In this document: one piece after another, positions 3,391-50,903 of the stretch | Numbering within the stretch: position 1 is the stretch's first letter | How the letters are laid out: each line of letters begins with the position of its first letter | DNA from: Escherichia phage UPWr_E4 | Sequence record: PP418987.1 | Length of the DNA: 64,000 nucleotides | Strand: one strand, 5' to 3' | Program-made: the position numbers and the translations under genes | The notes under the pieces: generated by a model | What the model saw: only the letters and a program-made list of their open reading frames with translations | Told to the model about the DNA's origin: nothing | Database searches by the model: none

Positions 3391-4506
3391 TTAAAATTCT
3401 CTAAATTCCTGTCCAAACACTTTGCCAGTTTTAGAAGAGGCTTGTGTAGGAAGTACCATTATATCTGGAGGTGAAGCCGATTCACAGACATAATTAACGC
3501 GAATACCGTTGACGCCAAATTCGGCAGGTTTTGAAATGCCGCCATTTCTTGATACTTCAGAAAAACTTAAATTTCTCATGCCGCCTTGACCTGCTTGAGC
3601 AGTTCTTTGTGCATATATCGTAAATCCTACGGCGTTTTCTGGAACAACTACATAGTCTTCTTTTAATTCCCAAGACCCAGCTTGCCCAGTAAACTCAGCT
3701 TGGGTCGAGGAAATATATCCATTTGATGCATCATAAAAACGAATGGATATGTTTGTAGTTCCAAGATCAAGTAAATCAGCATCAGCATATAACTGTGCTT
3801 TAAGATAAAGAACATCACCAGGAATTAAATTATAGTCAGAAAGTTTACTTATAGCAGCTGAAGTTGGCAATCGCGCAATTTCGTTATTAGTTCCACCAAC
3901 TGCTGACATGAATTGCTCGACACTTTCATAAGTTCTTTTTGGAAATCCTGTCGCTCCGACGTCTTCTAAACTATCAAATACAACATCTAAAATAGTTTGA
4001 TAATCATCTGTGCTTTTTCTATTACTTAGTTTAACATGCTCTAATGCAATAGCTCTTTTAGAAGAAGTATAAAAAGCAGCATATGATACGTCAAATCTTG
4101 ACAATACTGAATCTGATGGAAAAACTGAAGTTCCTGCTCCCCTTAACCAAGATACCACTTCAGGAGGAAAATTAACCTTTCCGCTAGTTAATATAGCAAC
4201 AAGTCTATTGTTTGACAAAGAATTCATGAAACTAACAAAAGCGGCAGATGTTGTATTGTTTGAAGCAGAAAAAGCATATGACTTACTATCAACTAATGCT
4301 CCCGTAGAAGGGTCAAAAACTCTTAAATGAAGACCTGCACTAAATGTTTGATTTCCAACGGGATTATCCTGAAATTTAACATATGGCCCCGCAGTAGAAA
4401 GCGGGCAAGAACCCGCTATGCTTATTTTATATCTTACTGAATTGCTTTCCGATAAAAATGGCGTTTGGACATATCCTTGTCCAAACTCTGCCATAAATTT
4501 TTCCAT
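3391..4506 (-). CDS. 35: long tail fibre hinge connector gp35
   Basis: 371 aa ORF between 34 and 36; size and position match T4 gp35. Confidence 0.85.
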   Translation of the reverse strand: MEKFMAEFGQGYVQTPFLSESNSVRYKISIAGSCPLSTAGPYVKFQDNPVGNQTFSAGLHLRVFDPSTGALVDSKSYAFSASNNTTSAAFVSFMNSLSNNRLVAILTSGKVNFPPEVVSWLRGAGTSVFPSDSVLSRFDVSYAAFYTSSKRAIALEHVKLSNRKSTDDYQTILDVVFDSLEDVGATGFPKRTYESVEQFMSAVGGTNNEIARLPTSAAISKLSDYNLIPGDVLYLKAQLYADADLLDLGTTNISIRFYDASNGYISSTQAEFTGQAGSWELKEDYVVVPENAVGFTIYAQRTAQAGQGGMRNLSFSEVSRNGGISKPAEFGVNGIRVNYVCESASPPDIMVLPTQASSKTGKVFGQEFREF

Positions 4507-4514
4507 AATACCTC

Positions 4515-7500
4515 TTATTCAATCCACTCAAATTTAACAGTTTTATTCACTGGGTCAGGAATAATGCGAACATTACCAATTCGCAAGAAATCGCGAATAG
4601 TAAGATTACCTATTATTCCATTATCAGATGGGATCGCTCCTATATCTGAAGGTTGAGGAGGGTTACCTCCGTCAAATACCTGAACAAAACTTGACCAAGA
4701 GTTTTTGGTTTTCTGCCATGTACGTGTCCAGCGAGTGGTACGTGCTTCTGGGGTCGTTGGATAAGTAATCCAATCTTGGTAAAGTGAATCAAGTGTGTTA
4801 CCAAACTGAGTCAATGTACCAGGAGATTTAACTTCTTCACCACGTTCTAAGTATGGAAGTCCAGTCACTTCATTAGTTTTTTCAACCATTTTAAAATAAC
4901 CCGGGAACTGGTTATAAGTGGCTGAATCATTAATATCGATTGACCAGAATCCTACTGTATCAGATGTTGGCGCACGGGTATATAAATCAGAGGTTTTAGT
5001 ACCCTGAGAACGAATTCTCGAGTTAACAGTCAAACCACCCGAACTTATAGTAGCACCTTTTGCAATGATTAAGCTTTCACCAATCGTTACTTGGCCAGAT
5101 GCATTATTAATAGCTAAAGGACGCAATCCATTAAATCCGCCAGTTTGATCACCCGATGCAGTAAGCATAAAATTCGTTACTGACCCGTCATTGCGAACAA
5201 TGAAACCATAATTTCCGCTAATAGCACGGAAAGCATTTGCGCTTCGAGAAATAATTTCACCAGTTGCAGTGACTGAATTACCAAATGTTGCTACACCATT
5301 TGCATTCAATGTTCCTGAAGCATTAACATTTATCGGTGTTACTGTACCGTTGATATTAAATGTTATATTTCCAGCTTTATTACGCTGAGAATAAAAATGA
5401 CTAGACGTTTCATCACTAACTTCAAATACGGTAGAACGTGTTGTGTCTGATTCCCCACTAAACTGATTTCCCCACACTCTGACTGTCATCGTTTGAGCTG
5501 GGTTTGTTCCAGTTTGAGGTCCTTTCTCAAAAATCAGACGAGTTGCCGTTCCAGTATTAGAAATAGTTAATGTACTATTTGCTGAAACTGATCCACCGAA
5601 TGTAGCAGTACTAGATGATACAAGAGGGGCACTCAGATTCGTTTGTTGGGTTAAGGTTAGTGAACCATTAACTGTTTGTGCAATGTCCCTACGAATGAAC
5701 TGGAGCGAATCTAGACCATCTAATAAATTACTATCTACAGCTTTTGCTTTTAATGGCAAATAATTTGCTAATACGCGATTTAATTCATATGGTGATACTG
5801 CATAACCATTTTTCTCATATGATTCTAATGGCTGTGTTGAACCTACCGTATCATTACCAACAAACGTTAATGAACCAGAAGAAGTTTTAACAAACCCTCT
5901 TATCAGAGTAGTTGCTGCCCAAGTTGGTTCACTCTGCACAATCCATTTTAAATTTTTTGGAGATACAGCAGTATTTGCTGACGTTCCAGTCACAGTTTCA
6001 GACTGAGTTGCAACTTTAATAACACCTTCTTGCGATTCGGTAGATTTAGTACCTAAAAGCTTTTTAGGAGTTATTAAAACATTATCTAATGTTCCTGCAG
6101 CAGCTTCAACTTGTGTAGCTACACGAAGTGTACCACGCTGTGTCTCATTTGCTTCAAGAATATTAAGGGTATAATGGTCCCAGAGAGTTCCTGATTCAAC
6201 TAATCCAGATAGAGCAACAACAGAAGTACGATCAGTACTATTAAATCTGGTTTTAATTTTTAATGGTGTAGAGATACGAGTATCGTCGACGCCTGCGTCG
6301 AATTCAACCTGTGTAGCAATTTCAGCTATACCACTTAAACTTTCAGTTGCTCTACGGTCATTTAAAGTTTTAGGAGTGACTGCACGAGTATAGTCAGTTC
6401 CTGTATTAACTTCACTTTGCGTAGCAATTTCAATTAAACCAATTCTTCCATCAGTTGATGTCTTTTTATGTAACGTTTCTGGCGTTACAACCGCATTTGC
6501 CCATCCTTCTTGGCTTTGTCCAGCAATTACTTCACTTTCAACTGCTAAAATTACTGCGCCTTGTTGCGTTGGAGTAGCTTTATACTGATCCAAAGCTTTA
6601 GGTGAAACAACTAAATTATTAGTGTTTTTATTATAAACATTCGTACCATTTAATTCACGACTAGAAGCTGGAGTAGCTCCTGCGGTAGATACAAAAGTTA
6701 CAATACCCGATAATGTTTCAGAACCTTGACGAGCTTGAAGCTTTTTAGGAGTGATGATTGTAGTATCATCAGTACCTGTATTAGTTTCCTGCTGCGTAGC
6801 AATTTCAGCGACACCTCTGCGAGTTTCTGTAGCAGTTCTTTCATTCAGCTTTTTAGGAGTGATGATAAGGTCATCTGCAAAAGAGAATGTGGTGTTCTGA
6901 TTCACTTGAGCAGTAGTTGCTATTCTTGCAATACCTCTGCGAGTTTCTGTAGCAGTACGATTAGCTAACGTTTCTGGAGTAATTGCCAATTCTTTTTGCG
7001 GAGAATTTTCTAAATCAGCATTTGCTTGAGCTTGTGTAGCTAAAGCAATTACGCCTAATCTTGCTCTAGTAGAATTATTTAAAGAATCGACTCTTTCAAC
7101 TGTTGGAACGTTTTGCTGTACAACCCAGTATTTTCCATCAGAATCTTCTATATAAGCAAGTTGCAAAACTGGTACATAATTAGTTTCACCGTTAAAAACT
7201 AATTCTTGAACTGTTACCCATTCAGCTTCAGGCGGATATTCTGAACGTTTTGGGAATTGCAGCAATTGAACTGAAGAAGCAATTTTATCTTCACCAGCAG
7301 CTTTGATTTTAACTGTTTGTCCTTTTCTCATGTAATTCATGGAAATTTTAACAGTATCACCAACAGAAATATCAGTCGGAAGCTGAAGTTCAATTGTTTG
7401 GGTTGTTCCATTATTCGCGCCAAATACCATGACTTCTTCATTTGGACGAATATTTGAATTAGTTGTTATAATGCGTAAACGTGCTTTACTATCCCCGTCA

Positions 7501-12266: not shown

Positions 12267-12296
12267 GGGGACCCTAGAGGTCCCCTTTTTTATTTT
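12267..12296 (+). terminator. rho-independent terminator after gene 32
   Basis: ggggacc-ctaga-ggtcccc hairpin followed by ttttttatttt. Confidence 0.7.
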
Positions 12297-12315
12297 AAAA
12301 ATTTTTCACAAAACT

Positions 12316-12345
12316 GTTTACATCCTTGTTCTTCCATGGTACTAT
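12316..12345 (+). promoter_or_regulatory. early promoter (GTTTACA, 17 nt spacer, TACTAT)
   Basis: Motifs read directly; immediately downstream of the gene 32 terminator. Confidence 0.5.
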
Positions 12346-20780: not shown

Positions 20781-22368
<1,588 letters not shown>

Positions 22369-22371
22369 GCT

Positions 22372-22425
22372 GTTTACAAGTCCCTCGTGTTGTGTTATAG
22401 TAGTCTTACTGACATAACATGAGGA
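22372..22425 (+). promoter_or_regulatory. 54 bp promoter/stop/RBS cassette, copy 1 (identical to 38327-38380)
   Basis: GTTTACA, 17 nt, TATAGT, then stop codons in all three frames and a GAGGA RBS; exact second copy elsewhere in the window. Confidence 0.6.
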
Positions 22426-22432
22426 CTTTATG

Positions 22433-22936
22433 ATGGATTTGCAGCTTATTACTACTGAAATGGTCGTTGAAGCATACGGTGATACTACAGATGGGATTTC
22501 TGTATTTAAAGGAAATCGTCGAGTTGGATATATCACCGATCTTAAGAAAGATTTAGCTAAGCAAGTCAAGCGGAAAACGACCATTAAAGAATATCGAAAT
22601 CGTCGTCTTGAGCAAGCCCGTGATATGCTTCCTGATGCGGTTGAGGAGATGAAAGTCTTTTTAGAAAATCAGCTTGCGAAATATGATTGCGATGTGTTCA
22701 TTAATCAGACTCAACCTAATGTTCATATTAACAACTGTAAATGCTATATCATCGTTAATCCTTTAACGGGAAAACATCGTCTTGGAATTAGTAATCCAAA
22801 TCGTAGCGCATCGGATATGGCAGAAGATGTTGCGGCGTGCTTTAAAATTTCTAAATCTCCGGCTGAACATCATATTTTAATTAACGGTCTTTCTCAAGAC
22901 GATATTATAGAGGTTATTAAAACTTTATGCAATTAA
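22433..22936 (+). CDS. alc: Alc, inhibitor of host transcription
   Basis: MDLQLITTEMVVEAYGDTTDGISVFKGNRR...; 167 aa, size and position as T4 Alc. Confidence 0.85.
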   Translation: MDLQLITTEMVVEAYGDTTDGISVFKGNRRVGYITDLKKDLAKQVKRKTTIKEYRNRRLEQARDMLPDAVEEMKVFLENQLAKYDCDVFINQTQPNVHINNCKCYIIVNPLTGKHRLGISNPNRSASDMAEDVAACFKISKSPAEHHILINGLSQDDIIEVIKTLCN

Positions 22937-23280
22937 GTAATACGACAGCAGGTTTGCTATTAATTGTAATTGCATTAGGCGGAACTTCTTTAATTTTAAA
23001 AAATAAAATTGAAAGATTAGAAACGTCTGTTGTAGAAATTACAAAAACGGCCAATGAAAACGCCTTAGCATTAAATAATTTGCGAATTCAGTATAATTAT
23101 ATTGATGCGATGAATAATAAAAATCGTGAGGCGATTGCTGCTATTGAGCGTGAAAATGAAAAACTGCGCAAAGATGCAAAGAAGGCGGATGTGGTGGCTC
23201 GTAAGCCAGGATTGGTTGAAAAACAAATCAACAACTCCTTCAACAAGTTCGCAGAAGACATCCAGGACCTTTCTAAATGA
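22927..23280 (+). CDS. i-spanin (inner-membrane spanin, pseT.3-like)
   Basis: N-terminal transmembrane segment (TAGLLLIVIALGGTSLIL) followed by a coiled-coil-like region; paired with a downstream lipoprotein gene. Confidence 0.65.
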   Translation: MQLSNTTAGLLLIVIALGGTSLILKNKIERLETSVVEITKTANENALALNNLRIQYNYIDAMNNKNREAIAAIERENEKLRKDAKKADVVARKPGLVEKQINNSFNKFAEDIQDLSK

Positions 23281-29335: not shown

Positions 29336-29365
29336 GGACTCCTTCGGGAGTCCTTTTTTATTTTC
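29336..29365 (+). terminator. rho-independent terminator
   Basis: ggactcc-ttcg-ggagtcc hairpin followed by ttttttatttt. Confidence 0.7.
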
Positions 29366-29383
29366 CAAAGATTGCATAAAGTT

Positions 29384-29416
29384 GTTTACAGTATGGTTCC
29401 TTTGTGATAGTATTAT
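29384..29416 (+). promoter_or_regulatory. early promoter (GTTTACA, 17 nt spacer, TAGTAT)
   Basis: Motifs read directly. Confidence 0.5.
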
Positions 29417-29440
29417 CTTACACAAACAAAGGAGAATAAA

Positions 29441-29773
29441 ATGAAAACGATTAATCTGAACGCTGCAGTTAAAACTAAATGCTTCAATGGTAAATATGAT
29501 GAAACTATGTGGTTCTTAATGGCAGTTGAAGGTGATATTATTGAAGTAGAAACAACAGAAGGTATGGGAACAGATTTCACCTTTACAATTCAAGTTCATA
29601 ATTTCTTTACTGGTTGGATTTATGAATTGAATACAGTAATCGTTGGAAAAATTGAACAAAATGAATTAGGTGAATGGTATTATGTTACAGCTCGCCAACG
29701 TGCCGAACGCTTAATTGAGAAGATGAAAAAAGTTGGTAAACTTGACATGCAGCATTGGAAAGTAGTAAAATAA
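29441..29773 (+). CDS. small protein (30.8-like), function unknown
   Basis: 110 aa ORF with GGAGA RBS. Confidence 0.55.
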   Translation: MKTINLNAAVKTKCFNGKYDETMWFLMAVEGDIIEVETTEGMGTDFTFTIQVHNFFTGWIYELNTVIVGKIEQNELGEWYYVTARQRAERLIEKMKKVGKLDMQHWKVVK

Positions 29774-30543: not shown

Positions 30544-30740
30544 TGAAATTCTTTTTAGGTCAAACTGTTGAATTAAAGGGAGTTGGTATACCTGGATTAA
30601 TTTCTAAGGTTCTACCTCCGTTTAAATGGAGTGGTATTCAAATAAAAGAGGCTTATATTGTTTTCTGGGTAGATGGAAATGAAGACCTTCGTATGGGTGA
30701 TGAATTATCTCCTATCTACGGATTAAAGGAAATAGTATGA
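30543..30740 (+). CDS. small protein, function unknown
   Basis: 65 aa ORF. Confidence 0.45.
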   Translation: MKFFLGQTVELKGVGIPGLISKVLPPFKWSGIQIKEAYIVFWVDGNEDLRMGDELSPIYGLKEIV

Positions 30741-34180: not shown

Positions 34181-34188
34181 TATAAATA
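34181..34188 (+). promoter_or_regulatory. late promoter (TATAAATA) upstream of alt
   Basis: Exact TATAAATA about 20 nt upstream of the alt ATG, downstream of a hairpin. Confidence 0.5.
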
Positions 34189-34208: not shown

Positions 34209-36266
34209 ATGATGGAACTTATTACAGAATTATTTGACGAAGATACTACTCTTCCGATTACAAACTTAAATCCAAAGAAGAAAATACCGCAAATTTTTTC
34301 AGTTCATGTTGATGATGCAATTGAACAACCAGGCTTTCGTTTATGTACCTATACATCTGGAGGTGATACTAATCGCGATTTAAAGATGGGCGATAAAATG
34401 ATGCATATTGTTCCTTTTACATTAACTGCTAAAGGTTCAATTGCTAAATTAAAAGGTCTTGGTCCAAGCCCAATTAATTATATCAATTCAGTTTTTACTG
34501 TTGCGATGCAAACAATGCGTCAGTATAAAATTGATGCCTGTATGCTTCGTATTCTTAAGTCTAAAACCGCTGGTCAAGCTCGACAAATTCAAGTTATTGC
34601 TGATAGACTTATCCGTAGTCGTTCAGGTGGCAGATACGTCCTTCTTAAGGAACTCTGGGATTACGATAAAAAGTATGCATATATTCTTATACATCGCAAA
34701 AATGTATCACTAGAAGACATTCCGGGAGTTCCGGAAATTAGTACTGAGCTCTTTACTAAAGTTGAATCGAAGGTCGGTGATGTTTATATCAATAAAGATA
34801 CTGGAGCTCAAGTAACTAAAAATGAGGCAATTGCAGCATCTATTGCGCAAGAAAATGATAAACGTTCTGACCAAGCTGTAATCGTTAAAGTTAAAATTTC
34901 CCGTAGAGCAATTGCGCAAAGTCAATCATTGGAATCTTCTAGATTTGAAACGCCGATGTTTCAAAAATTTGAGGCTTCAGCAGCAGAATTAAATAAACCT
35001 GCTGACGCTCCTTTAATTTCTGACGCTAATGAATTAACTGTTATTTCTACTTCAGGATTTGCATTAGAGAATGCTCTTAGTAGTGTTACAGCTGGAATGG
35101 CATTCAGAGAAGCTTCTATAATTCCTGAAGATAAAGAATCTGATGTTAATGCAGAAATAAAAAATAAAGCTTTAGAAAGATTACGAAAAGAATCTATTAC
35201 TTCAATAAAAACTTTAGAAACTATTGCTTCTATAGTTGATGATACTTTAGAAAAATATAAAGGTGCTTGGTTAGAAAGAAACATTAACAAGCATTCGCAT
35301 TTAAATCAAGATGCTGCGAATGAGTTAGTACAAAATTCTTGGAATGCAATAAAAACAAAGATTATTCGAAGAGAATTGCGTGGATATGCTCTTACCGCTG
35401 GATGGTCACTACATCCTATAGTCGAAAATAAAGATTCATCTAAATACACACCGGCACAAAAACGCGGAATTCGTGAATACGTAAGTTCAGGATATGTAGA
35501 CATAAATAACGCTCTTTTGGGATTATATAATCCAGATGAGCGTACAAGTATTTTGACAGCATCTGATATAGAAAAAGCTATTGATAATTTAGATTCTGCC
35601 TTTAAAAATGGTGAACGATTACCAAAAGGTATTACTTTGTATCGTTCACAACGAATGTTACCTTCAATATATGAAGCACTGGTAAAAAATCGAGTTTTTT
35701 ATTTTAGAAATTTTGTGTCAACATCATTATATCCAAATATTTTTGGTACCTGGATGACTGATTCATCTGTGGGTGTTTTACCAGACGAAAAGCGTTTAAG
35801 TGTTTCTATTGATAAAACTGATGAAGGACTAGTAAATTCTAGCGATAATTTAGTTGGAATTGGATGGGTTATTACTGGGGCTGATAAAGTCAATGTTGTT
35901 TTACCAGGTGGAAGTTTAGCACCTTCAAATGAAATGGAAGTCATTTTGCCACGTGGATTAATGGTCAAAGTTAATAAAATAACCGATGCATCTTACAATG
36001 ATGGAACAGTTAAAACTAACAACAAGCTTATTCAAGCTGAAGTTATGACCACAGAAGAACTCACCGAATCGGTAATTTATGACGGTGACCGTCTAATGGA
36101 AACCGGCGAAGTAGTTACAATGACAGGTGATATTGAAATAGAAGACAGAGTTGATTTTGCATCATTTGTTTCATCAAATGTTAAACAGAAAGTAGAATCA
36201 TCTCTTGGAATTATTGCGTCTTGTATAGATATTGCAAACATGCCTTACAAGTTCGTTCAAGGATAA
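34209..36266 (+). CDS. alt: Alt ADP-ribosyltransferase (head-packaged), copy A
   Basis: About 685 aa; MELITELFDEDTTLPITNLNP...; ADP-ribosyltransferase R-S-E signature (LYRSQ, FVSTSL, EVILPRG). Confidence 0.85.
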   Translation: MMELITELFDEDTTLPITNLNPKKKIPQIFSVHVDDAIEQPGFRLCTYTSGGDTNRDLKMGDKMMHIVPFTLTAKGSIAKLKGLGPSPINYINSVFTVAMQTMRQYKIDACMLRILKSKTAGQARQIQVIADRLIRSRSGGRYVLLKELWDYDKKYAYILIHRKNVSLEDIPGVPEISTELFTKVESKVGDVYINKDTGAQVTKNEAIAASIAQENDKRSDQAVIVKVKISRRAIAQSQSLESSRFETPMFQKFEASAAELNKPADAPLISDANELTVISTSGFALENALSSVTAGMAFREASIIPEDKESDVNAEIKNKALERLRKESITSIKTLETIASIVDDTLEKYKGAWLERNINKHSHLNQDAANELVQNSWNAIKTKIIRRELRGYALTAGWSLHPIVENKDSSKYTPAQKRGIREYVSSGYVDINNALLGLYNPDERTSILTASDIEKAIDNLDSAFKNGERLPKGITLYRSQRMLPSIYEALVKNRVFYFRNFVSTSLYPNIFGTWMTDSSVGVLPDEKRLSVSIDKTDEGLVNSSDNLVGIGWVITGADKVNVVLPGGSLAPSNEMEVILPRGLMVKVNKITDASYNDGTVKTNNKLIQAEVMTTEELTESVIYDGDRLMETGEVVTMTGDIEIEDRVDFASFVSSNVKQKVESSLGIIASCIDIANMPYKFVQG

Positions 36267-36269
36267 ATC

Positions 36270-38327
36270 ATGGAACTTATTACAGAATTATTTGACGGCG
36301 CTTCGGCGCCGGTTGTTAACTTAAATCCTAAGCATAAAATACCACAAATTTTTGCTATTCAAGCCGGCGAAGAAAGCGTGCTTCCTGGATTTAGATTTTG
36401 TACATACACCTCTGGTGGTGATACGAATAAAAACGTTAAGCCAGGCGATAAAATGATGCATATCGTAATGATAGGTGTTAATGAGAAACTATCATTAGTT
36501 AAGCTTAAAAACTTGGGTGGAAATCCAATTGGTGTCATTAATGCCGTTTTTGATACTGCTCTTCAAACAATGAAACAGTATAAAATCGACGCATGCCTAT
36601 TCCGCGTACTAAAAAGTAAAACAAATGGCGCAGCTCGTCAAATGCAAGTTATTGCTGACCGTTTAGTACGTACTAAAGGAGCAGGTCGATATGTTCTTTT
36701 AAAGGAAATCTGGGACTATGATAAGAAATATGCATATATTATGGTTTACCGTAAAAATGCCAATTTAGAAGACATTCCAGGTGTACCTCCTATTTCAACT
36801 GAGTTATTCACAAAAGTTGAATCAAAGGTCGGTGATGTTTATGTAGACGTTAAAACAGGAAATGCTGTTCCTAAAGCTGTCGCTGTTGCTGCTTCTATTG
36901 CTTTAGAAAATGATAAGCGCACGGACCAAGCTGTTATTCAGAAAACTAAAATCAGTCGTCGATTAGCAGCACAAGCTCAATATTCTACTGTTGATGCTTC
37001 ACTTCAGGGTGATAGCTTTGCTGCCAAGAAATATCAAGAGTTTGAATCTAAAGTTCCGGTATATAAAGCAGAAGGACCAATGAACTCTGGCGTTATCCAG
37101 ATTGGTTCAAACTTCAGCAAAGGAGCTATCGGTGGTATGAGAAGTGCTTCTCGTTTTAAATCTAGCGATTATGAACTAGAAAGCTTCCGAAATCATATTG
37201 CATTGGCCCATGCACGTTTACGTGATCCATCTATCAAGTTGCAGAGCGATATAACATATCAAGGTTCTCAAGAATATTTAAAGAATAAAGAATTCTTTGA
37301 TTATAAAACTGATAAAATTTTAAGCGATCTTGCTGACATTAATATTTCTAATAGCTTTGATGTTATTAAGAAAATTATCAATGATTTGGTTAAAGGTTCT
37401 AAAGCCACGCCAGATGAAAAGACAGCTATTATTCAATTTGTAATGAATGGCATTTATAAATTGATTAATGAATCTGCTGCCCAGGCATATGAATACGCAA
37501 GCACCGAAGTAGCTCCAAAAGGACTGACTCAGGCTGAATCTGATGTAATTGAAGATTATTGTGCAGATTCATATGTTGAAATGAACTCGTTCCTTTTGGG
37601 TAAACCAGATTCTACCCGTGAAGAATACATGGAACGAGCTATTAAGCACATCGAGACGTTAGATTCTGCCTTTGCCAAAGGATCAGTTCTTCCTCCAGGA
37701 ACTACACTTTACCGTGGGCAAGAAGTTACCTTTAAAACTTTGCGTCATAACATTGAAAATAAAATGTTCTATTTCAAGAACTTCGTATCCACATCGCTTA
37801 AACCAAATATCTTCGGTGAGCATGGTAAAAACTATATGGCTCTAGATGATTCTGGCGCAGTATTTTCTGGCGAAGGAGAAGGTTCCGTTGATACAGAAGA
37901 TTTGATGCATATGGGTAGTCATTCTACATATGCTAATGAAGATGCTGAAACTAGCGTGGGTATGGTAATTAAAGGAGCTGAGCGAATCAAAGTTATCGTT
38001 CCAGGTCATTTATCAGGATTTCCATCAGAAGCTGAAGTTATTCTACCACGTGGAATTTTACTGAAGATTAATAAAGTAAGTACGTACTTTATGAAAGAAA
38101 CTGCTTATAACAAGTATCTAATCGAAGGTACAATCGTTCCTCCTTCTGAACAATTAGAAGAATCAGTATATGATGGAGACCATCTAATGGAAACTGGTGA
38201 AGTTCGTCCAATGGCTGGATTTAATCAATTCCTTGTAGAAGAATCAAAAGAAGAGGAAAATGAAGTTTCTCAAATCTTGGCTTCTTTGGTTAACATCAAC
38301 GGAATGTCTAAAAAGTTCAAAATGTAG
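36270..38327 (+). CDS. Alt-family ADP-ribosyltransferase paralog, copy B
   Basis: 685 aa; same N-terminus MELITELFD, roughly 60-65 percent identical to copy A over the first ~230 aa by eye, divergent middle, conserved R-S-E signature (LYRGQ, FVSTSL, EVILPRG). Confidence 0.8.
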   Translation: MELITELFDGASAPVVNLNPKHKIPQIFAIQAGEESVLPGFRFCTYTSGGDTNKNVKPGDKMMHIVMIGVNEKLSLVKLKNLGGNPIGVINAVFDTALQTMKQYKIDACLFRVLKSKTNGAARQMQVIADRLVRTKGAGRYVLLKEIWDYDKKYAYIMVYRKNANLEDIPGVPPISTELFTKVESKVGDVYVDVKTGNAVPKAVAVAASIALENDKRTDQAVIQKTKISRRLAAQAQYSTVDASLQGDSFAAKKYQEFESKVPVYKAEGPMNSGVIQIGSNFSKGAIGGMRSASRFKSSDYELESFRNHIALAHARLRDPSIKLQSDITYQGSQEYLKNKEFFDYKTDKILSDLADINISNSFDVIKKIINDLVKGSKATPDEKTAIIQFVMNGIYKLINESAAQAYEYASTEVAPKGLTQAESDVIEDYCADSYVEMNSFLLGKPDSTREEYMERAIKHIETLDSAFAKGSVLPPGTTLYRGQEVTFKTLRHNIENKMFYFKNFVSTSLKPNIFGEHGKNYMALDDSGAVFSGEGEGSVDTEDLMHMGSHSTYANEDAETSVGMVIKGAERIKVIVPGHLSGFPSEAEVILPRGILLKINKVSTYFMKETAYNKYLIEGTIVPPSEQLEESVYDGDHLMETGEVRPMAGFNQFLVEESKEEENEVSQILASLVNINGMSKKFKM

Positions 38328-38380
38328 TTTACAAGTCCCTCGTGTTGTGTTATAGTAGTCTTACTGACATAACATGAGGA
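38327..38380 (+). promoter_or_regulatory. 54 bp promoter/stop/RBS cassette, copy 2 (identical to 22372-22425)
   Basis: Exact 54/54 match to the cassette upstream of alc. Confidence 0.6.
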
Positions 38381-38387
38381 ACACAAA

Positions 38388-38678
38388 ATGAAATCTTCTT
38401 TGCGCTTTTTAGGTCAAGAACTTGTAGTTGAAGGAGTTATTCCTGCTGATAATGCTTTTAATGAAGCAGTTTACGATGAATTTATCAAAATTTTTGGAAC
38501 AGATAAAAAGTTCGGAATTTTTCCTTCTGAAAATTTTTCAAAGCCAGAACAGACTGAAAGTATTTTCCAAGGTGTAGTAACAGGTAAATTTGAGTCAGAA
38601 GCTCCGGTAAAAATTGAAGTTTATATTGAAGACAGTTTAGTTGCTTCAGTTTCTGCTTTCATTTCATTCCGTAAATAA
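38388..38678 (+). CDS. protein of unknown function (96 aa) expressed from the duplicated cassette
   Basis: ORF with GAGGA RBS 7 nt upstream; last plus-strand gene before the convergent gene 54. Confidence 0.55.
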   Translation: MKSSLRFLGQELVVEGVIPADNAFNEAVYDEFIKIFGTDKKFGIFPSENFSKPEQTESIFQGVVTGKFESEAPVKIEVYIEDSLVASVSAFISFRK

Positions 38679-38683
38679 AAATA

Positions 38684-38703
38684 TGGGGACCAAAAGGTCC
38701 CCA
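38684..38703. terminator. bidirectional hairpin between convergent transcription units
   Basis: tggggacc-aaaa-ggtcccca between the 96 aa ORF (+) and gene 54 (-). Confidence 0.55.
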
Positions 38704-38706
38704 TTG

Positions 38707-39672
38707 TTATATTGCTCCTAATATTTTACTCTGCGAATTGACAATTCCTGTCATAGTATTAATATTTGAAATGCTTCCTGCAGTTCCCCCTAATCTACTA
38801 AGTCGTGAAAGCGAATTAGATAGTCCAGTAACACCTCCACTATTTCCTAGAACGCTTTGAATACCATTTATAGTAGCAGATTCAAGCCATTCAAGGGCAG
38901 CTTGTCTATCAACTGCTCCAGCCTGCATCACTCTATACGCAAAAGTAACATCAAATGTAGTTATTTGGTTATCTCCATCATATGATAACTCAGGAGCGCT
39001 TACGGACACTGGAATGCATCCAGTGAACATCACCGCAGTATGTGGTAATCCATTGCGAGAATGAAGATTAACCTGAATATCTGCCTCGACATCTTGCGGC
39101 AAAGCACGCAATCCAGTTACTGGGTCTTGAACAGCGTTAACCCAGTCTTGCATTGCACGATAGTTACAAGCTTCTGAATCCATTCTGAATGAAATAACCA
39201 AAGGGTCTAATTCTCTCCCAGTTATACGAATATTAGGAGAATTATAGTTCCAGTCAGTTTCATAGGATAATCTATTCTCTGGCATTTTTACAGAGTATAT
39301 CATCAATCCAGATGAGTTATATGCCACGTTAAAGAAGTCAATTAAATATGTACCAACTGTAAATGAGCCTAATAAACTTTGAACTGTACGTTGACTCATG
39401 GCACCAATAAGATATTTACTAACCCCTGATTTTCTTATCAGTTTTTGTGTGCCAGCTGTAATTAGCGTAGTAATTCCCTGATTAATATCGCCTTGAGTTA
39501 ATCCTAACCAATCTGAATTTAGGCCCAAGTTATTATAAGAAAAGTTGCTAATTGAACTTATCAACGAAGAGCTTTTAGTTGATGGAGTTGTAGCAAAAAC
39601 ACAGCTGAACATATTATTACGTTGGAAATCTGCGTTTATTGCTTGATTATTAAATTCCTCTAAAGAATACAT
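38707..39672 (-). CDS. 54: baseplate tail tube initiator gp54
   Basis: 321 aa; size and position as T4 gp54. Confidence 0.85.
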   Translation of the reverse strand: MYSLEEFNNQAINADFQRNNMFSCVFATTPSTKSSSLISSISNFSYNNLGLNSDWLGLTQGDINQGITTLITAGTQKLIRKSGVSKYLIGAMSQRTVQSLLGSFTVGTYLIDFFNVAYNSSGLMIYSVKMPENRLSYETDWNYNSPNIRITGRELDPLVISFRMDSEACNYRAMQDWVNAVQDPVTGLRALPQDVEADIQVNLHSRNGLPHTAVMFTGCIPVSVSAPELSYDGDNQITTFDVTFAYRVMQAGAVDRQAALEWLESATINGIQSVLGNSGGVTGLSNSLSRLSRLGGTAGSISNINTMTGIVNSQSKILGAI

Positions 39673-40766
39673 TAAAAAGTCCCCGCATATAAAGAAGCAC
39701 GGTTTAACGTGATAATTTCTCTCATAGTAATCTCGAGAGTAAATGTACTAGGGAGATTTGGAGCAATAGCTAATCCGTTAAAGTTACCATTAGGTGTTTT
39801 ATCAAATCTGATACTCTGGATTTGACATGGACCGAATATTTCCGTTTTTCCATCAAACTTAGATGTTGCACCAAAGTTTTTCACCATCCAAATTGTCGGG
39901 TTTGAAACTACAAGAACGTTAGTTAAACTCGATGTCATTTTCTCAAATAACGTCTTATTTTTAACTGCATCTTCTGGAGTTAACGGCTCAATAAAAGTAG
40001 AACGGTACCACTCATCTAAATATCCTTTTATTTCAGCAGCATATTGAGATTTACCAGTTTCACCGTAAGAAAAATAGTTAAAATACTGATAGATATTAAT
40101 AATAGCCATTAAATCTTCTGTTGAGCGCGGAGTCAAATCCCAAGTGAACACTTTAGTTCTATTTTCAGCACCGCCGTACATGCTTCTGGCTGTCGTATAA
40201 ATCTGTTCATTATTATCAGCCATTATACCTTGTGTTATACTTTCCAGCGCTCCAAATACTGCGGTTGAAGCCATATTGCTTAGCACACCAGTAGCAGTAC
40301 CTCCACCTTTTGTAATAAGACTATCTTGAACATCATTAAATCTATGTGATGACGTATCGACGTCAGATTTAGATCTAGGTAAAAGAATATTTGCAACAGG
40401 AACTTTACTTATTGTTCCTGAATTATTATCTGATATTAGTCCATTTGATAGTTTTGATACTGTATTACTGATAGTGTTTCTGGCTGTACGTAAAATACTC
40501 GAAGATGAAGAAGAGTAGTTAGATCTCATCGTTCTAAGACTTCCAGAATCCCTAGATGACATATTGTATGCAGTAAATAATAATCCATTCTTATATAGAT
40601 CTGTTACCTGGAAGTCCCCTGTAGTGTCATTACCACTAGCACGCCCAGTTGGAAACTGGGCTGTGTATGTTTTAGTTCCTACTTCTGATTTAGTACTCTG
40701 TCCGGCTGAAATTGTTTCACCGGACTTTTTAATTAAATCAGCAGTTATTTCTTTAACAATTGCCAT
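39672..40766 (-). CDS. 48: baseplate tail tube cap gp48
   Basis: 364 aa, same length as T4 gp48; synteny. Confidence 0.85.
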   Translation of the reverse strand: MAIVKEITADLIKKSGETISAGQSTKSEVGTKTYTAQFPTGRASGNDTTGDFQVTDLYKNGLLFTAYNMSSRDSGSLRTMRSNYSSSSSSILRTARNTISNTVSKLSNGLISDNNSGTISKVPVANILLPRSKSDVDTSSHRFNDVQDSLITKGGGTATGVLSNMASTAVFGALESITQGIMADNNEQIYTTARSMYGGAENRTKVFTWDLTPRSTEDLMAIINIYQYFNYFSYGETGKSQYAAEIKGYLDEWYRSTFIEPLTPEDAVKNKTLFEKMTSSLTNVLVVSNPTIWMVKNFGATSKFDGKTEIFGPCQIQSIRFDKTPNGNFNGLAIAPNLPSTFTLEITMREIITLNRASLYAGTF

Positions 40767-49484: not shown

Positions 49485-50903
49485 ATGACTTTTACAGTTG
49501 ATATAACTCCTAAAACACCGACAGGGGTTATTGATGAAACTAAGCAGTTTACTGCTACACCCAGTGGTGAAACTGGAGGCGGAACTATTACATATGCTTG
49601 GACTGTAGATGATGCTCCACAAGATGGAGCTGAAGCAACTTTTGATTATGTATTAAAAGGACCTGCTGGACAAAAGACTATTAAAGTAGTTGCAACAAAT
49701 ACAGTTCCAGATACTGATGCTGAAACAGCAGAAGCTACTACAACTATCACAGTTCAAAATAAGACACAAACAACTACTTTAGCTGTAACTCCTGGTAGCC
49801 CTGATGCTGGAGTGATTGGAACTCCAATTGAATTTACCGCTGCCTTAGCTTCACAGCCATCAGGTGCAAACGCTACGTATCAATGGCACGTTGACGGTTC
49901 TCCTGTAGACGAAGCAACTGACGCTACATTCAATTACACTCCTGACACAAGCGGAGTTAAAAAAATCAAGTGTGTAGCTCAAGTAACTGCGGCAGATTAT
50001 GATGCACTAAGCGTTACTTCTAATGAAGTATCATTGACTGTTAATAAAAAGACGCAGACGACTACCTTGGCAGTAACTCCTGATAGTCCTCCAGCTGGAG
50101 TGATTGGAACAGCCGTTGAATTTACTGCTGCCTTAGCTTCTCAACCTGATGGGGCATCTGCTACGTATCAGTGGTATGTAGATGATTCACAAGTTGGTGG
50201 AGAAACTAACTCTACATTTAGCTATACTCCAACTACAAGTGGAGTAAAAAGAATTAAATGCGTAGCCCAAGTAACTGCTGAAAATTACAATGAAAAGGAA
50301 GTTACTTCTAATGAAGTATCATTGACAGTTAATAAGAAGACAATGAATCCACAGGTTACATTGACTCCTCCTTCTATTAATGTTCAGCAAGATGCTTCGG
50401 CTACATTTACGGCTAATGTTACGGGTGCTCCAGAAGAAGCACAAATTACTTACTCATGGAAGAAAGATTCTTCTCCTGTAGAAGGGTCAACTAACGTATA
50501 TACTGTCGATACCTCATCTGTTGGAAGTCAAACTATTGAAGTTACTGCTGTCGTTACTGCAACTGATTACGATAGCAAAACTATTACAGCAGAAGGTCAA
50601 GTTCAGGTAACTGATAAAGTTGCTCCAGAACCAGAAGGTGAATTGCCTTATGTTCATCCTCTTCCACATCGTACTTCAGCTTATATCTGGTGCGGTTGGT
50701 GGGTTATGGATGAAATCCAAAAAATGACCGAAGAAGGTAAAGATTGGAAAACTGAAGATCCAGACAGTAAATACTACCTGCATCGTTACACTCTTCAGAA
50801 GATGATGAAAGACTATCCAGAAGTTGATGTTCAAGAATCACGCAATGGATACATCATTCATAAAACTGCTTTAGAAACTGGTATCATCTATACCTATCCA
50901 TAA
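49485..50903 (+). CDS. hoc: Hoc, outer capsid decoration protein with Ig-like domains (472 aa)
   Basis: MTFTVDITPKTPTGVIDETKQF..., tandem Ig-like modules and conserved capsid-binding C-terminus ...YIWCGWWVMDEIQKM.... Confidence 0.85.
   Translation: MTFTVDITPKTPTGVIDETKQFTATPSGETGGGTITYAWTVDDAPQDGAEATFDYVLKGPAGQKTIKVVATNTVPDTDAETAEATTTITVQNKTQTTTLAVTPGSPDAGVIGTPIEFTAALASQPSGANATYQWHVDGSPVDEATDATFNYTPDTSGVKKIKCVAQVTAADYDALSVTSNEVSLTVNKKTQTTTLAVTPDSPPAGVIGTAVEFTAALASQPDGASATYQWYVDDSQVGGETNSTFSYTPTTSGVKRIKCVAQVTAENYNEKEVTSNEVSLTVNKKTMNPQVTLTPPSINVQQDASATFTANVTGAPEEAQITYSWKKDSSPVEGSTNVYTVDTSSVGSQTIEVTAVVTATDYDSKTITAEGQVQVTDKVAPEPEGELPYVHPLPHRTSAYIWCGWWVMDEIQKMTEEGKDWKTEDPDSKYYLHRYTLQKMMKDYPEVDVQESRNGYIIHKTALETGIIYTYP
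49770..50342 (+). repeat. tandem diverged repeat (2 x about 288 bp) encoding two closely related Ig-like domains of Hoc
   Basis: TTTLAVTPGSPDAGVIGTPIEFTAALASQP... versus TTTLAVTPDSPPAGVIGTAVEFTAALASQP..., about 75 percent amino acid identity by eye. Confidence 0.6.

Follow-up and report, generated by a model that had tools for sequence, protein, structure and literature searches.

Introduction

Promoter-early stem-loops (PeSLs; PMC2839356, PMC4122927) and the translationally gated genes of phage T4 (PMC3014915) are the described systems closest to the element treated here, a 54-bp sequence (GTTTACAAGTCCCTCGTGTTGTGTTATAGTAGTCTTACTGACATAACATGAGGA; the cassette in the following) that occurs in two exact copies on the plus strand of a 64,000-nt stretch of Escherichia phage UPWr_E4 DNA (PP418987.1; the window in the following). 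PeSLs are found in many copies in hyperplastic regions beside ORFans, and recombination over short homologies has been proposed between them. In PMC2839356, the consensus TTTACW-N17-TAYWAT is given for PST and T4, the stems of these phages are described just upstream of the promoter (AGNA-loop-TCNT), and for phi1 and RB49 a stem overlapping the -10 box is among the commonest placements. The same paper refers to Repoila et al. (1994) for repeats at the internal-protein loci of T-even phages, which carry early promoters and AT-rich stems, adjoin highly variable genes and replacements, and were proposed as guides for shuffling. Another arrangement is known for the T4 genes e, soc, 49 and I-TevI. 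Their long transcripts from upstream fold and hide the Shine-Dalgarno (SD) sequence or the AUG, and a promoter inside the 5′ half of the hairpin gives rise to transcripts without the 5′ arm, which are translated (reviewed in PMC3014915). This internal promoter is a late promoter (TATAAATA), and translation is delayed to late times.

The two copies of the cassette are located about 16 kb apart, at the junction of rnlA and alc (copy A) and between the second of two alt paralogs and alt.-3 (copy B). The explanation that is considered probable, with the function deduced from structure prediction and covariation, is that the cassette combines an early promoter with a translational gate, which would be ancestral at alc, would have been copied to alt.-3 by gene conversion and would occasionally be homogenised between the loci. 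The cassette belongs to known kinds of elements and is not a new kind. In the sequence-only reading, which was made from the letters of the window before this analysis, it had been assigned to a 'promoter-early-stop-promoter' type; the class was right and the name was not, PeSL standing for promoter-early stem-loop.

Results and discussion

Anatomy of the cassette and predicted occlusion of the ribosome binding site

A mismatch search of the window confirmed the 54/54 identity that had been claimed for the two loci, and the parts named in the sequence-only reading were recovered as well. A consensus scan gave the early-like promoter as TTTACA-17 nt-TATAGT with a TG-extended -10 box (10/12 consensus matches), stop codons are present in all three frames, and the SD sequence GAGGA is located at 22421-22425 in copy A and at 38376-38380 in copy B. 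Each copy follows a stop codon (TAA of rnlA, 3 nt upstream of copy A; TAG of the alt paralog at copy B) and precedes a start codon, that of alc at 22430 and that of a 96-aa open reading frame (ORF), alt.-3, at 38388. Transcription is predicted to start at about A37, seven bases past TATAGT, which corresponds to positions near 22408 and near 38363. T4 early promoters are composed of an UP element, a -35 box, TGn and a -10 box (PMC2988021), and the cassette likewise has GTTTACA, a 17-nt spacer, TG, TAnnnT and A-rich sequence upstream; it differs in having the -10 box TATAGT instead of TATAAT and a spacer that is constrained by pairing within the 5′ untranslated region. The last 20 nt of the second alt paralog are A-rich and occupy the position of an UP element, as which they may act. 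The earlier interpretation of the repeat as a regulatory cassette is thus supported in the form of an early-promoter/SD unit.

Promoter, stops and SD had been described correctly, but the central hairpin that pairs the SD had been missed. A hairpin of 18 bp is predicted for cassette positions 12-53; its stem of 14 + 4 bp is interrupted by a 2-nt internal loop and capped by an apical loop of 4 nt. The energy is -22 kcal/mol and the z-score -5.4; none of 200 shuffled sequences was equally stable. The promoter spacer makes up the 5′ arm, the -10 box (positions 25-30) is close to the upper end of the stem, transcription is predicted to start at the apex, and the SD forms the end of the 3′ arm. At copy A the stem gains six further pairs (AAGUCC/GGACUU) from the A-specific 3′ flank, which have no partner at copy B. 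Opening of the ribosome binding site (RBS; -14 to +3) was calculated to cost 17.6 kcal/mol in read-through RNA versus 3.7 kcal/mol in RNA from the cassette's own promoter at copy A, and 14.5 versus 2.4 kcal/mol at copy B, and the predicted probability of the SD being paired in upstream-derived RNA is 0.99-1.00. Since read-through RNA holds both arms, its SD is predicted to be hidden, and since RNA from the own promoter holds only the 3′ arm, its SD is predicted to be open.

The proposed gating logic, with the SD predicted to be paired in upstream-derived RNA, is that of e, soc, 49 and I-TevI. Whereas the internal promoter of those genes is late, the cassette promoter is of the immediate-early sigma-70 type and TATAAATA does not occur within the cassette, so that the timing logic would be reversed and translation would be restricted to early times. 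Neither alc nor alt.-3 is among the cases in PMC3014915, and an earlier description in the older T4 literature is possible; alc is not mentioned in the DksA paper.

For such a gate, the transcripts that reach the cassette are of importance. No terminator was called by the terminator scan between rnlA and alc, and transcripts of rnlA should read through copy A. The scan also called none between the late promoter core at 34181 and the terminator at 38683; due to this, late alt mRNA should traverse copy B into alt.-3. In T4, alt is expressed late, with RNA at 7 min and protein at 8 min, and rnlA has an early RNA and a late-appearing protein (PMC9697503), and alc and alt.-3 are early in both RNA and protein (PMC9697503 supplements). 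As the early alt.-3 lies directly 3′ of the late alt, an early promoter is required where copy B lies, which is indirect evidence. The cassette would be a small PeSL-type unit for immediate-early expression, with a strong T4-type early promoter and a long hairpin. RNA derived from upstream, that is rnlA read-through at copy A and late alt mRNA from TATAAATA at 34181 at copy B, would fold and hide the SD, and RNA from the cassette promoter would begin at the apex, contain the 3′ arm only and be translated. Synthesis of Alc and Alt.-3 would then be limited to the time in which the early promoter is active, regardless of later transcription across their genes.

The hairpin may instead act on transcription or on RNA stability, as a terminator, an attenuator, or a 3′-end or RNase III processing structure of upstream transcripts, roles that were proposed for PeSL stem-loops, with SD pairing being incidental. 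A stem of about 20 bp suffices as a substrate of RNase III. Moreover, stems straddle the -10 box in six of the eight early promoters of the window and the SD is hidden in only three of these six, namely at both cassette copies and at a promoter at 29385. According to PMC2839356, a phi1 PeSL stem-loop lowered expression of a downstream lacZ like a good terminator; a lacZ reporter, however, cannot tell termination from a translational block. The stem of the cassette is not followed by a U-run (the flank of copy B is AACACAAAA), and the terminator scan did not call it, yet called the true terminator at 38683-38704. In the comparison of genera, which is described in the next section, the 3′ arm specifically follows the SD and shows compensatory change. 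Taken together, an action on transcription or stability is regarded as unlikely.

Several candidates for the hairpin and its surroundings were discarded in the course of the analysis. The reading as an intrinsic terminator was rejected because of the missing U-run, cleavage by RegB was dropped because the cassette contains no GGAG, and an Rfam search over 38200-38750 returned sub-threshold noise and no family. The promoter at 29385-29443 (TTTACA-17-TAGTAT) is located 5′ of a homolog of gene 30.8; its hairpin straddles the -10 box and pairs the SD (UCCUUUG/CAAAGGA), and opening of the RBS was calculated at 10.0 kcal/mol in read-through RNA versus 0.3 kcal/mol in RNA from its own promoter.

The inverted repeat could also act as DNA, either as a cruciform or as a palindrome over the -10 box to which a protein binds, and could in this way modulate the early promoter or shut it off. 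Repeats straddling the -10 box are present in most early promoters of the window, the shut-off of T4 early promoters is unexplained (PMC2988021), and covariation alone cannot separate an RNA fold from a DNA fold. However, the arm sequences vary among promoters and genera, which argues against a common operator, and the 3′ arm coincides with the SD and not with a promoter element. Three pairs of the Tequatrovirus stem are of the G.U type, and in a cruciform they would turn into G.T and A.C mismatches. Because of these pairs, the antisense fold is 6-9 kcal/mol weaker than the sense fold in Tequatrovirus (copy B: -23.0 kcal/mol sense, -17.2 kcal/mol antisense), and this sense-strand advantage favours RNA structure over a DNA cruciform for Tequatrovirus. 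A role at the DNA level is accordingly judged highly improbable.

Conservation of the predicted gate at alc

The junction of rnlA and alc was read in 12 genera (Tequatro-, Dhaka-, Mosig-, Gapriver-, Marfa-, Gelderland-, Karam-, Roskilde-, Jiaoda-, Braga-, Kanagawa- and Winklervirus). GTTTACA abutting the rnlA stop codon, a spacer of about 17 nt and a TAnnnT -10 box were found in 11 of them (GTGTACA in Roskildevirus), the exception being Gaprivervirus, whose locus is rearranged and contains an additional alc-like ORF. In phage VR25 of this genus (locus 3790-4110) the additional ORF is 77 aa long and is situated between rnlA and alc; the GGGG...CCCC stem-loop before it has a T-run and overlaps a TGTACA -35-like box.

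Complementarity between spacer and SD region was found in 10 of the 12 genera, with quite different sequences. Spacer and SD arms are UCUCCUCAU and AUGAGGAGA in Dhakavirus, CCUCGUUUGUU and AACAAACGAGG in Marfavirus, UCUCCGUUUAGUU and AACUAAACGGAGA in Gelderlandvirus, and ACCUCUCAUUUUU and GAAAAUGAGAGGU in Bragavirus. Opening of the alc RBS in those genera was calculated at 8.5-17.6 kcal/mol in read-through RNA versus 0.6-4.2 kcal/mol in RNA from the own promoter, and the read-through penalty in the 10 genera amounts to 5.7-14.1 kcal/mol. Covariation was counted over nine genera and 14 spacer positions. The pairs were indexed by spacer position due to the fact that a MAFFT alignment of the alc leaders was structurally inconsistent; indexing from the base of the helix gave spurious outer pairs and was discarded. 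In total, 88% of the cells are paired, and a double-sided change is present in 12 of the 14 columns. Registers that were slid against each other gave 40-46% paired cells, and column shuffles among genera gave 61±3%, with none of 2000 shuffles reaching 88%. Within Tequatrovirus, one compensatory series is present (C15:G50 to U:G to U:A).

Occurrence and borders of the repeat

The 54-mer is the sole long exact non-coding repeat that was found in the window. No further copy is present in the window at up to three mismatches, and none of 100 shuffled sequences matched. The flanks diverge from the first base on each side (..aagct|..|ctttatg at copy A, ..atgta|..|acacaaa at copy B). A BLAST comparison of the two regions gave an alignment limited to 54-57 nt, which shows that the cassette is not the core of a longer repeat. 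Two BLAST searches over 50,697 phage records detected the 54-mer at 94-100% identity in about 499 phage records, among them T4, T6, PST and RB33, with two places in nearly all of them (997-998 places; 499-500 records). A search for further copies, which the sequence-only reading had proposed, therefore ended at the two known loci in the window and in the phage records; scans of IMG/VR and of JGI metagenomes yielded few additional loci (5 + 5 and 6). The presence of the same pair in about 499 independent records excludes an assembly artefact. Neither a longer repeat nor a duplication artefact, both of which had been envisaged, accounts for the identity.

The window belongs to a Tequatrovirus and is 99.8% identical to phage vB_EcoM_JB75 over 3 kb (37000-40000). 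In T4 (NC_000866), copy A at the rnlA-alc junction is identical in sequence to copy A of the window, and copy B, 5′ of alt.-3, shows the single change G40A. Judged from its presence in T4 and about 499 relatives, the cassette is an old and fixed property of Tequatrovirus and not peculiar to this genome.

These data also bear on the notion of a neutral duplication, according to which two ordinary early promoters are identical by chance convergence or recent copying. T4 early promoters have a strong consensus, and an identity of 57-74% is reached even by unrelated A and B sites. Nevertheless, the chance expectation of 54/54 identity is effectively zero, the pair is maintained at 94-100% identity in about 499 genomes, and the structural class of the alt.-3 site is changed compared with seven of the eight other genera sampled (see below). 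This explanation is considered barely credible.

The alt.-3 site and the proposed origin of the second copy

The junction of alt and alt.-3 was read in ten genomes of nine genera. In all of these, alt.-3 has the promoter and an SD of the ATGAGGA type, and the same promoter layout abuts the upstream stop codon in every other genus sampled. In 8 of the 10 genomes, from 7 genera, a short hairpin of 4-6 bp is located wholly within the spacer (e.g. CCACAU-GG-AUGUGG or CACAC-GGA-GUGUG with their apical loops), and the read-through penalty with this short hairpin is at most 4.8 kcal/mol. The SD is hidden at alt.-3 in two of the nine genera, Tequatrovirus and one Kanagawavirus. For the latter, phage IME523, RBS opening was calculated at 14.8 versus 1.7 kcal/mol; the two Kanagawavirus sites were read in different phages.

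With regard to the short hairpins, it was also observed that they precede both the transcription start and, by about 60 nt, the ATG, and that they show compensatory changes (CCACAU/AUGUGG, CACAC/GUGUG, GCAC/GUGC, UCCAC/GUGGA). The pattern in Kanagawavirus appears to be reversed, with an open SD at alc (phage KLB31) and a hidden SD at alt.-3 (phage IME523).

By parsimony, the frequency of the SD-hiding class in 10 of 12 genera at alc and in 2 of 9 at alt.-3 argues for copying from alc to alt.-3, and points to the long SD-hiding form as belonging to alc and having replaced the alt.-3 promoter in an ancestor of Tequatrovirus. This direction is supported by the complementarity that extends 6 bp past the repeat only at copy A, into the locus-specific flank. 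The borders of the repeat coincide exactly with the -35 box and with ACATGAGGA. Both sites already had the -35 box and the SD motif in common, and these motifs are therefore natural anchors for a short conversion tract. According to the explanation favoured here, the design would be ancestral at alc, and the alc version would have overwritten the promoter of alt.-3 through ectopic gene conversion of a short patch that was anchored on the -35 box and the ATGAGGA SD.

Probable exchange between the copies and the question of mobility

The three linked substitutions C11T, C15T and G16A are found exactly at locus B in at least 29 records, including PST, HP3 and ECML-134, and at locus A in JB75 and, judged by identity, in U115, OE5505 and UTI-E4. 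Additionally, C27 is present at both loci of GBLB0003 and at locus A alone in other genomes, and some cassette alleles carry the -10 box TATAAT or TACAGT. Because three linked substitutions are unlikely to have arisen twice, the variants are most simply read as the result of ectopic gene conversion between the 54-bp repeats, and they suggest that the two copies still exchange sequence occasionally. A crossover between the direct repeats would drop 16 kb including the ligase gene and gene 31, so that only non-crossover events should survive.

The sequence-only reading had gone further and proposed a mobile or recombinogenic cassette that may have mediated gene shuffling at the boundary of alt and gene 54. 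Sequence exchange between the copies is supported by the shared variants, but mobility is not. In an extended form of this proposal, the cassette would be a PeSL linker that moves genes about and shaped the alt-54 boundary by crossing-over or by excision and insertion of mini-circles. Its anatomy is PeSL-like, variants are common to both loci, and the alt copy number varies beside copy B; furthermore, 54 bp is close to the minimum homology for T4 recombination, for which roughly 50 bp is cited in the discussion of PMC2839356. On the other hand, about 499 genomes have two copies each, always at these two loci wherever the sequence was read, and no endonuclease or transposase gene adjoins the cassette. 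The order alt, alt.-3, gene 54 is constant in the ten genomes of nine genera. A comparison of flanking genes, which had been suggested as a check, showed conserved gene order at both loci in the sampled genera, save for the extra alc-like ORF in Gaprivervirus, and no module boundary coincides with the cassette. Neither indels nor replacements end at the cassette in two genome comparisons (T4 and JB75). T4 lost most of the second alt copy by a 1.7-kb deletion between 9-nt repeats CTAAAAAGT (window 36612 and 38309), which are outside the cassette, and this deletion left the remnants alt.-1 and alt.-2 and the A-rich 20 nt before the -35 box. A mosaic patch by which the window differs from JB75 (21772-23171, about 5% diverged) spans the cassette and does not end there, its breakpoints (about 21772 and 23171) also being outside; it is ordinary mosaic recombination between Tequatroviruses. 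Finally, a repeat crossover that deletes 16 kb with the ligase gene and gene 31 should be lethal. A linker of this kind is thus regarded as improbable.

Concerning the same regions, the window carries two tandem full-length alt paralogs at 34209-38327, which are about 69% identical across the first 680 nt. The JB75 patch covers the 3′ part of rnlA, the cassette, alc and the start of pseT.3, with 0-5 differences per 200 nt in the surrounding DNA.

The comparison with PeSLs can be summarised on this basis. The cassette resembles them in consisting of an early sigma-70-type promoter and a stable stem-loop, followed by the SD and the start codon of the downstream gene, with the stop codon of the upstream gene at its 5′ end. 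Its -35 box matches the PST/T4 consensus of PMC2839356 exactly and its -10 box at five of six positions; the position of its stem over the -10 box corresponds to one of the common phi1/RB49 placements in the same source, and the sharing of alleles between the copies fits the recombination that has been proposed between PeSL copies. It differs in being present in two copies at fixed loci with conserved genes, instead of many copies beside ORFans. Its stem straddles the -10 box and reaches the SD instead of lying just upstream of the promoter, as described for PST/T4, and no terminator-type U-tract is present. In addition, only the cassette sequence itself has been exchanged, and this together with the conserved genes beside it also distinguishes it from the repeats of the internal-protein loci. 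Other early promoters of the window carry unrelated stems. As a side observation, units at 12284-12345 and 29352-29413, which are 71% alike, consist of a terminator tail followed by an early promoter (CCTTTTTTATTTT...GTTTACA) and resemble the published PST-type PeSL layout with the stem upstream of the promoter.

Several points weigh against the combination of gate and gene conversion proposed here. The cross-genus register was drawn from the predicted fold of each sequence itself, which favours pairing. There is no SD occlusion at alc in two genera, Kanagawavirus and Gaprivervirus (the latter with its rearranged locus), and occlusion is weak in Mosigvirus. The sense-strand advantage is inconsistent across genera, and in 3 of 10 the antisense fold is the better one. 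Sequences of Tequatrovirus vary too little among themselves for a test of the fold, as 97.9% of the cells pair and 193 of 500 shuffles match this value; five Tequatrovirus cells break a pair, two of them via G29A, which improves the -10 box. As to the direction of copying, identity is 57-74% in every comparison and A-type and B-type sites are indistinguishable by it, so that the direction is derived from structure class and flank complementarity. To our knowledge, no harm from late translation of Alc or Alt.-3 has been described.

Features of the two loci and other repeats in the window

The coordinates of all features are given in Table 1. The gene alt.-3 is known through mutants escaping CmdTAC (PMC11618068).

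Table 1. Coordinates of cassette copies, their parts and neighbouring features in the window.
Feature	Position	Strand	Remarks
Cassette copy A, rnlA/alc intergenic, putative donor	22372..22425	+	exact 54-mer; same locus in T4
Cassette copy B, second alt paralog/alt.-3, putative recipient	38327..38380	+	exact 54-mer
Hairpin of copy A	22378..22428	+	stem within 54-mer 22383-22424; -24 to -31 kcal/mol
Hairpin of copy B	38338..38379	+	14 + 4 bp; SD in 3′ arm
Early sigma-70-type promoter of copy A	22373..22401	+	-35 box 22373-22378, 17-nt spacer, -10 box TATAGT 22396-22401
Early promoter of copy B	38328..38356	+	-35 box 38328-38333, -10 box 38351-38356
rnlA (T4 gene 63), 5′ neighbour of copy A	21208..22368	+	
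alc, inhibitor of host transcription, served by copy A	22430..22936	+	97% identity to T4 Alc
Second alt paralog	36270..38327	+	TAG stop overlaps cassette position 1
alt.-3, 96 aa, served by copy B	38388..38678	+	99% identity to T4 Alt.-3
Bidirectional intrinsic terminator, alt.-3/gene 54	38683..38704	.	ends early and late transcripts; terminator scan
Late promoter core TATAAATA, 5′ of tandem alt genes	34181..34188	+	likely source of late read-through across copy B

The 5′ end of alt.-3 (38405-38438) and the start of another small early ORF (30551-30584) have 74% identity over 34 nt, which hints at a shared N-terminal motif (..FLGQ..). Further repeats of the window are a perfect 153-nt tandem duplication at 1188-1493 (two copies, 100% identical), a 288-nt unit in two tandem copies at 49749-50324 with 75% identity, which possibly encodes repeated protein domains, and a 68-nt unit present four times at 6007-6983 with 63-72% identity and irregular spacing.

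Conclusions

RBS-hiding hairpins centred on early promoters occur at alc in at least 10 genera and, in the window, also at alt.-3 and at the gene 30.8 homolog. It may tentatively be proposed, with more doubt than for the cassette itself, that they are a conserved device of T4-like phages which confines the translation of certain immediate-early genes to transcripts from their own promoters and could be copied between loci by short-patch gene conversion, with the common -35 and SD motifs as anchors. If this is true, the device would be a built-in post-transcriptional shut-off of early proteins once the early promoters cease, and would mirror the gates of e, soc, 49 and I-TevI, which depend on late promoters. 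A working gate would account for the strictly early Alc and Alt.-3 despite middle and late transcription through their genes. The cassette would moreover be a natural example of a regulatory unit that was overwritten at a second locus and is kept in step by gene conversion, which is a more modest and better documented role for homology of the PeSL type than gene shuffling. When alc, alt or alt.-3, the last of which is relevant to CmdTAC escape, are engineered, the 54-bp repeats have to be regarded as recombination partners, and edits of the spacer may alter translation.

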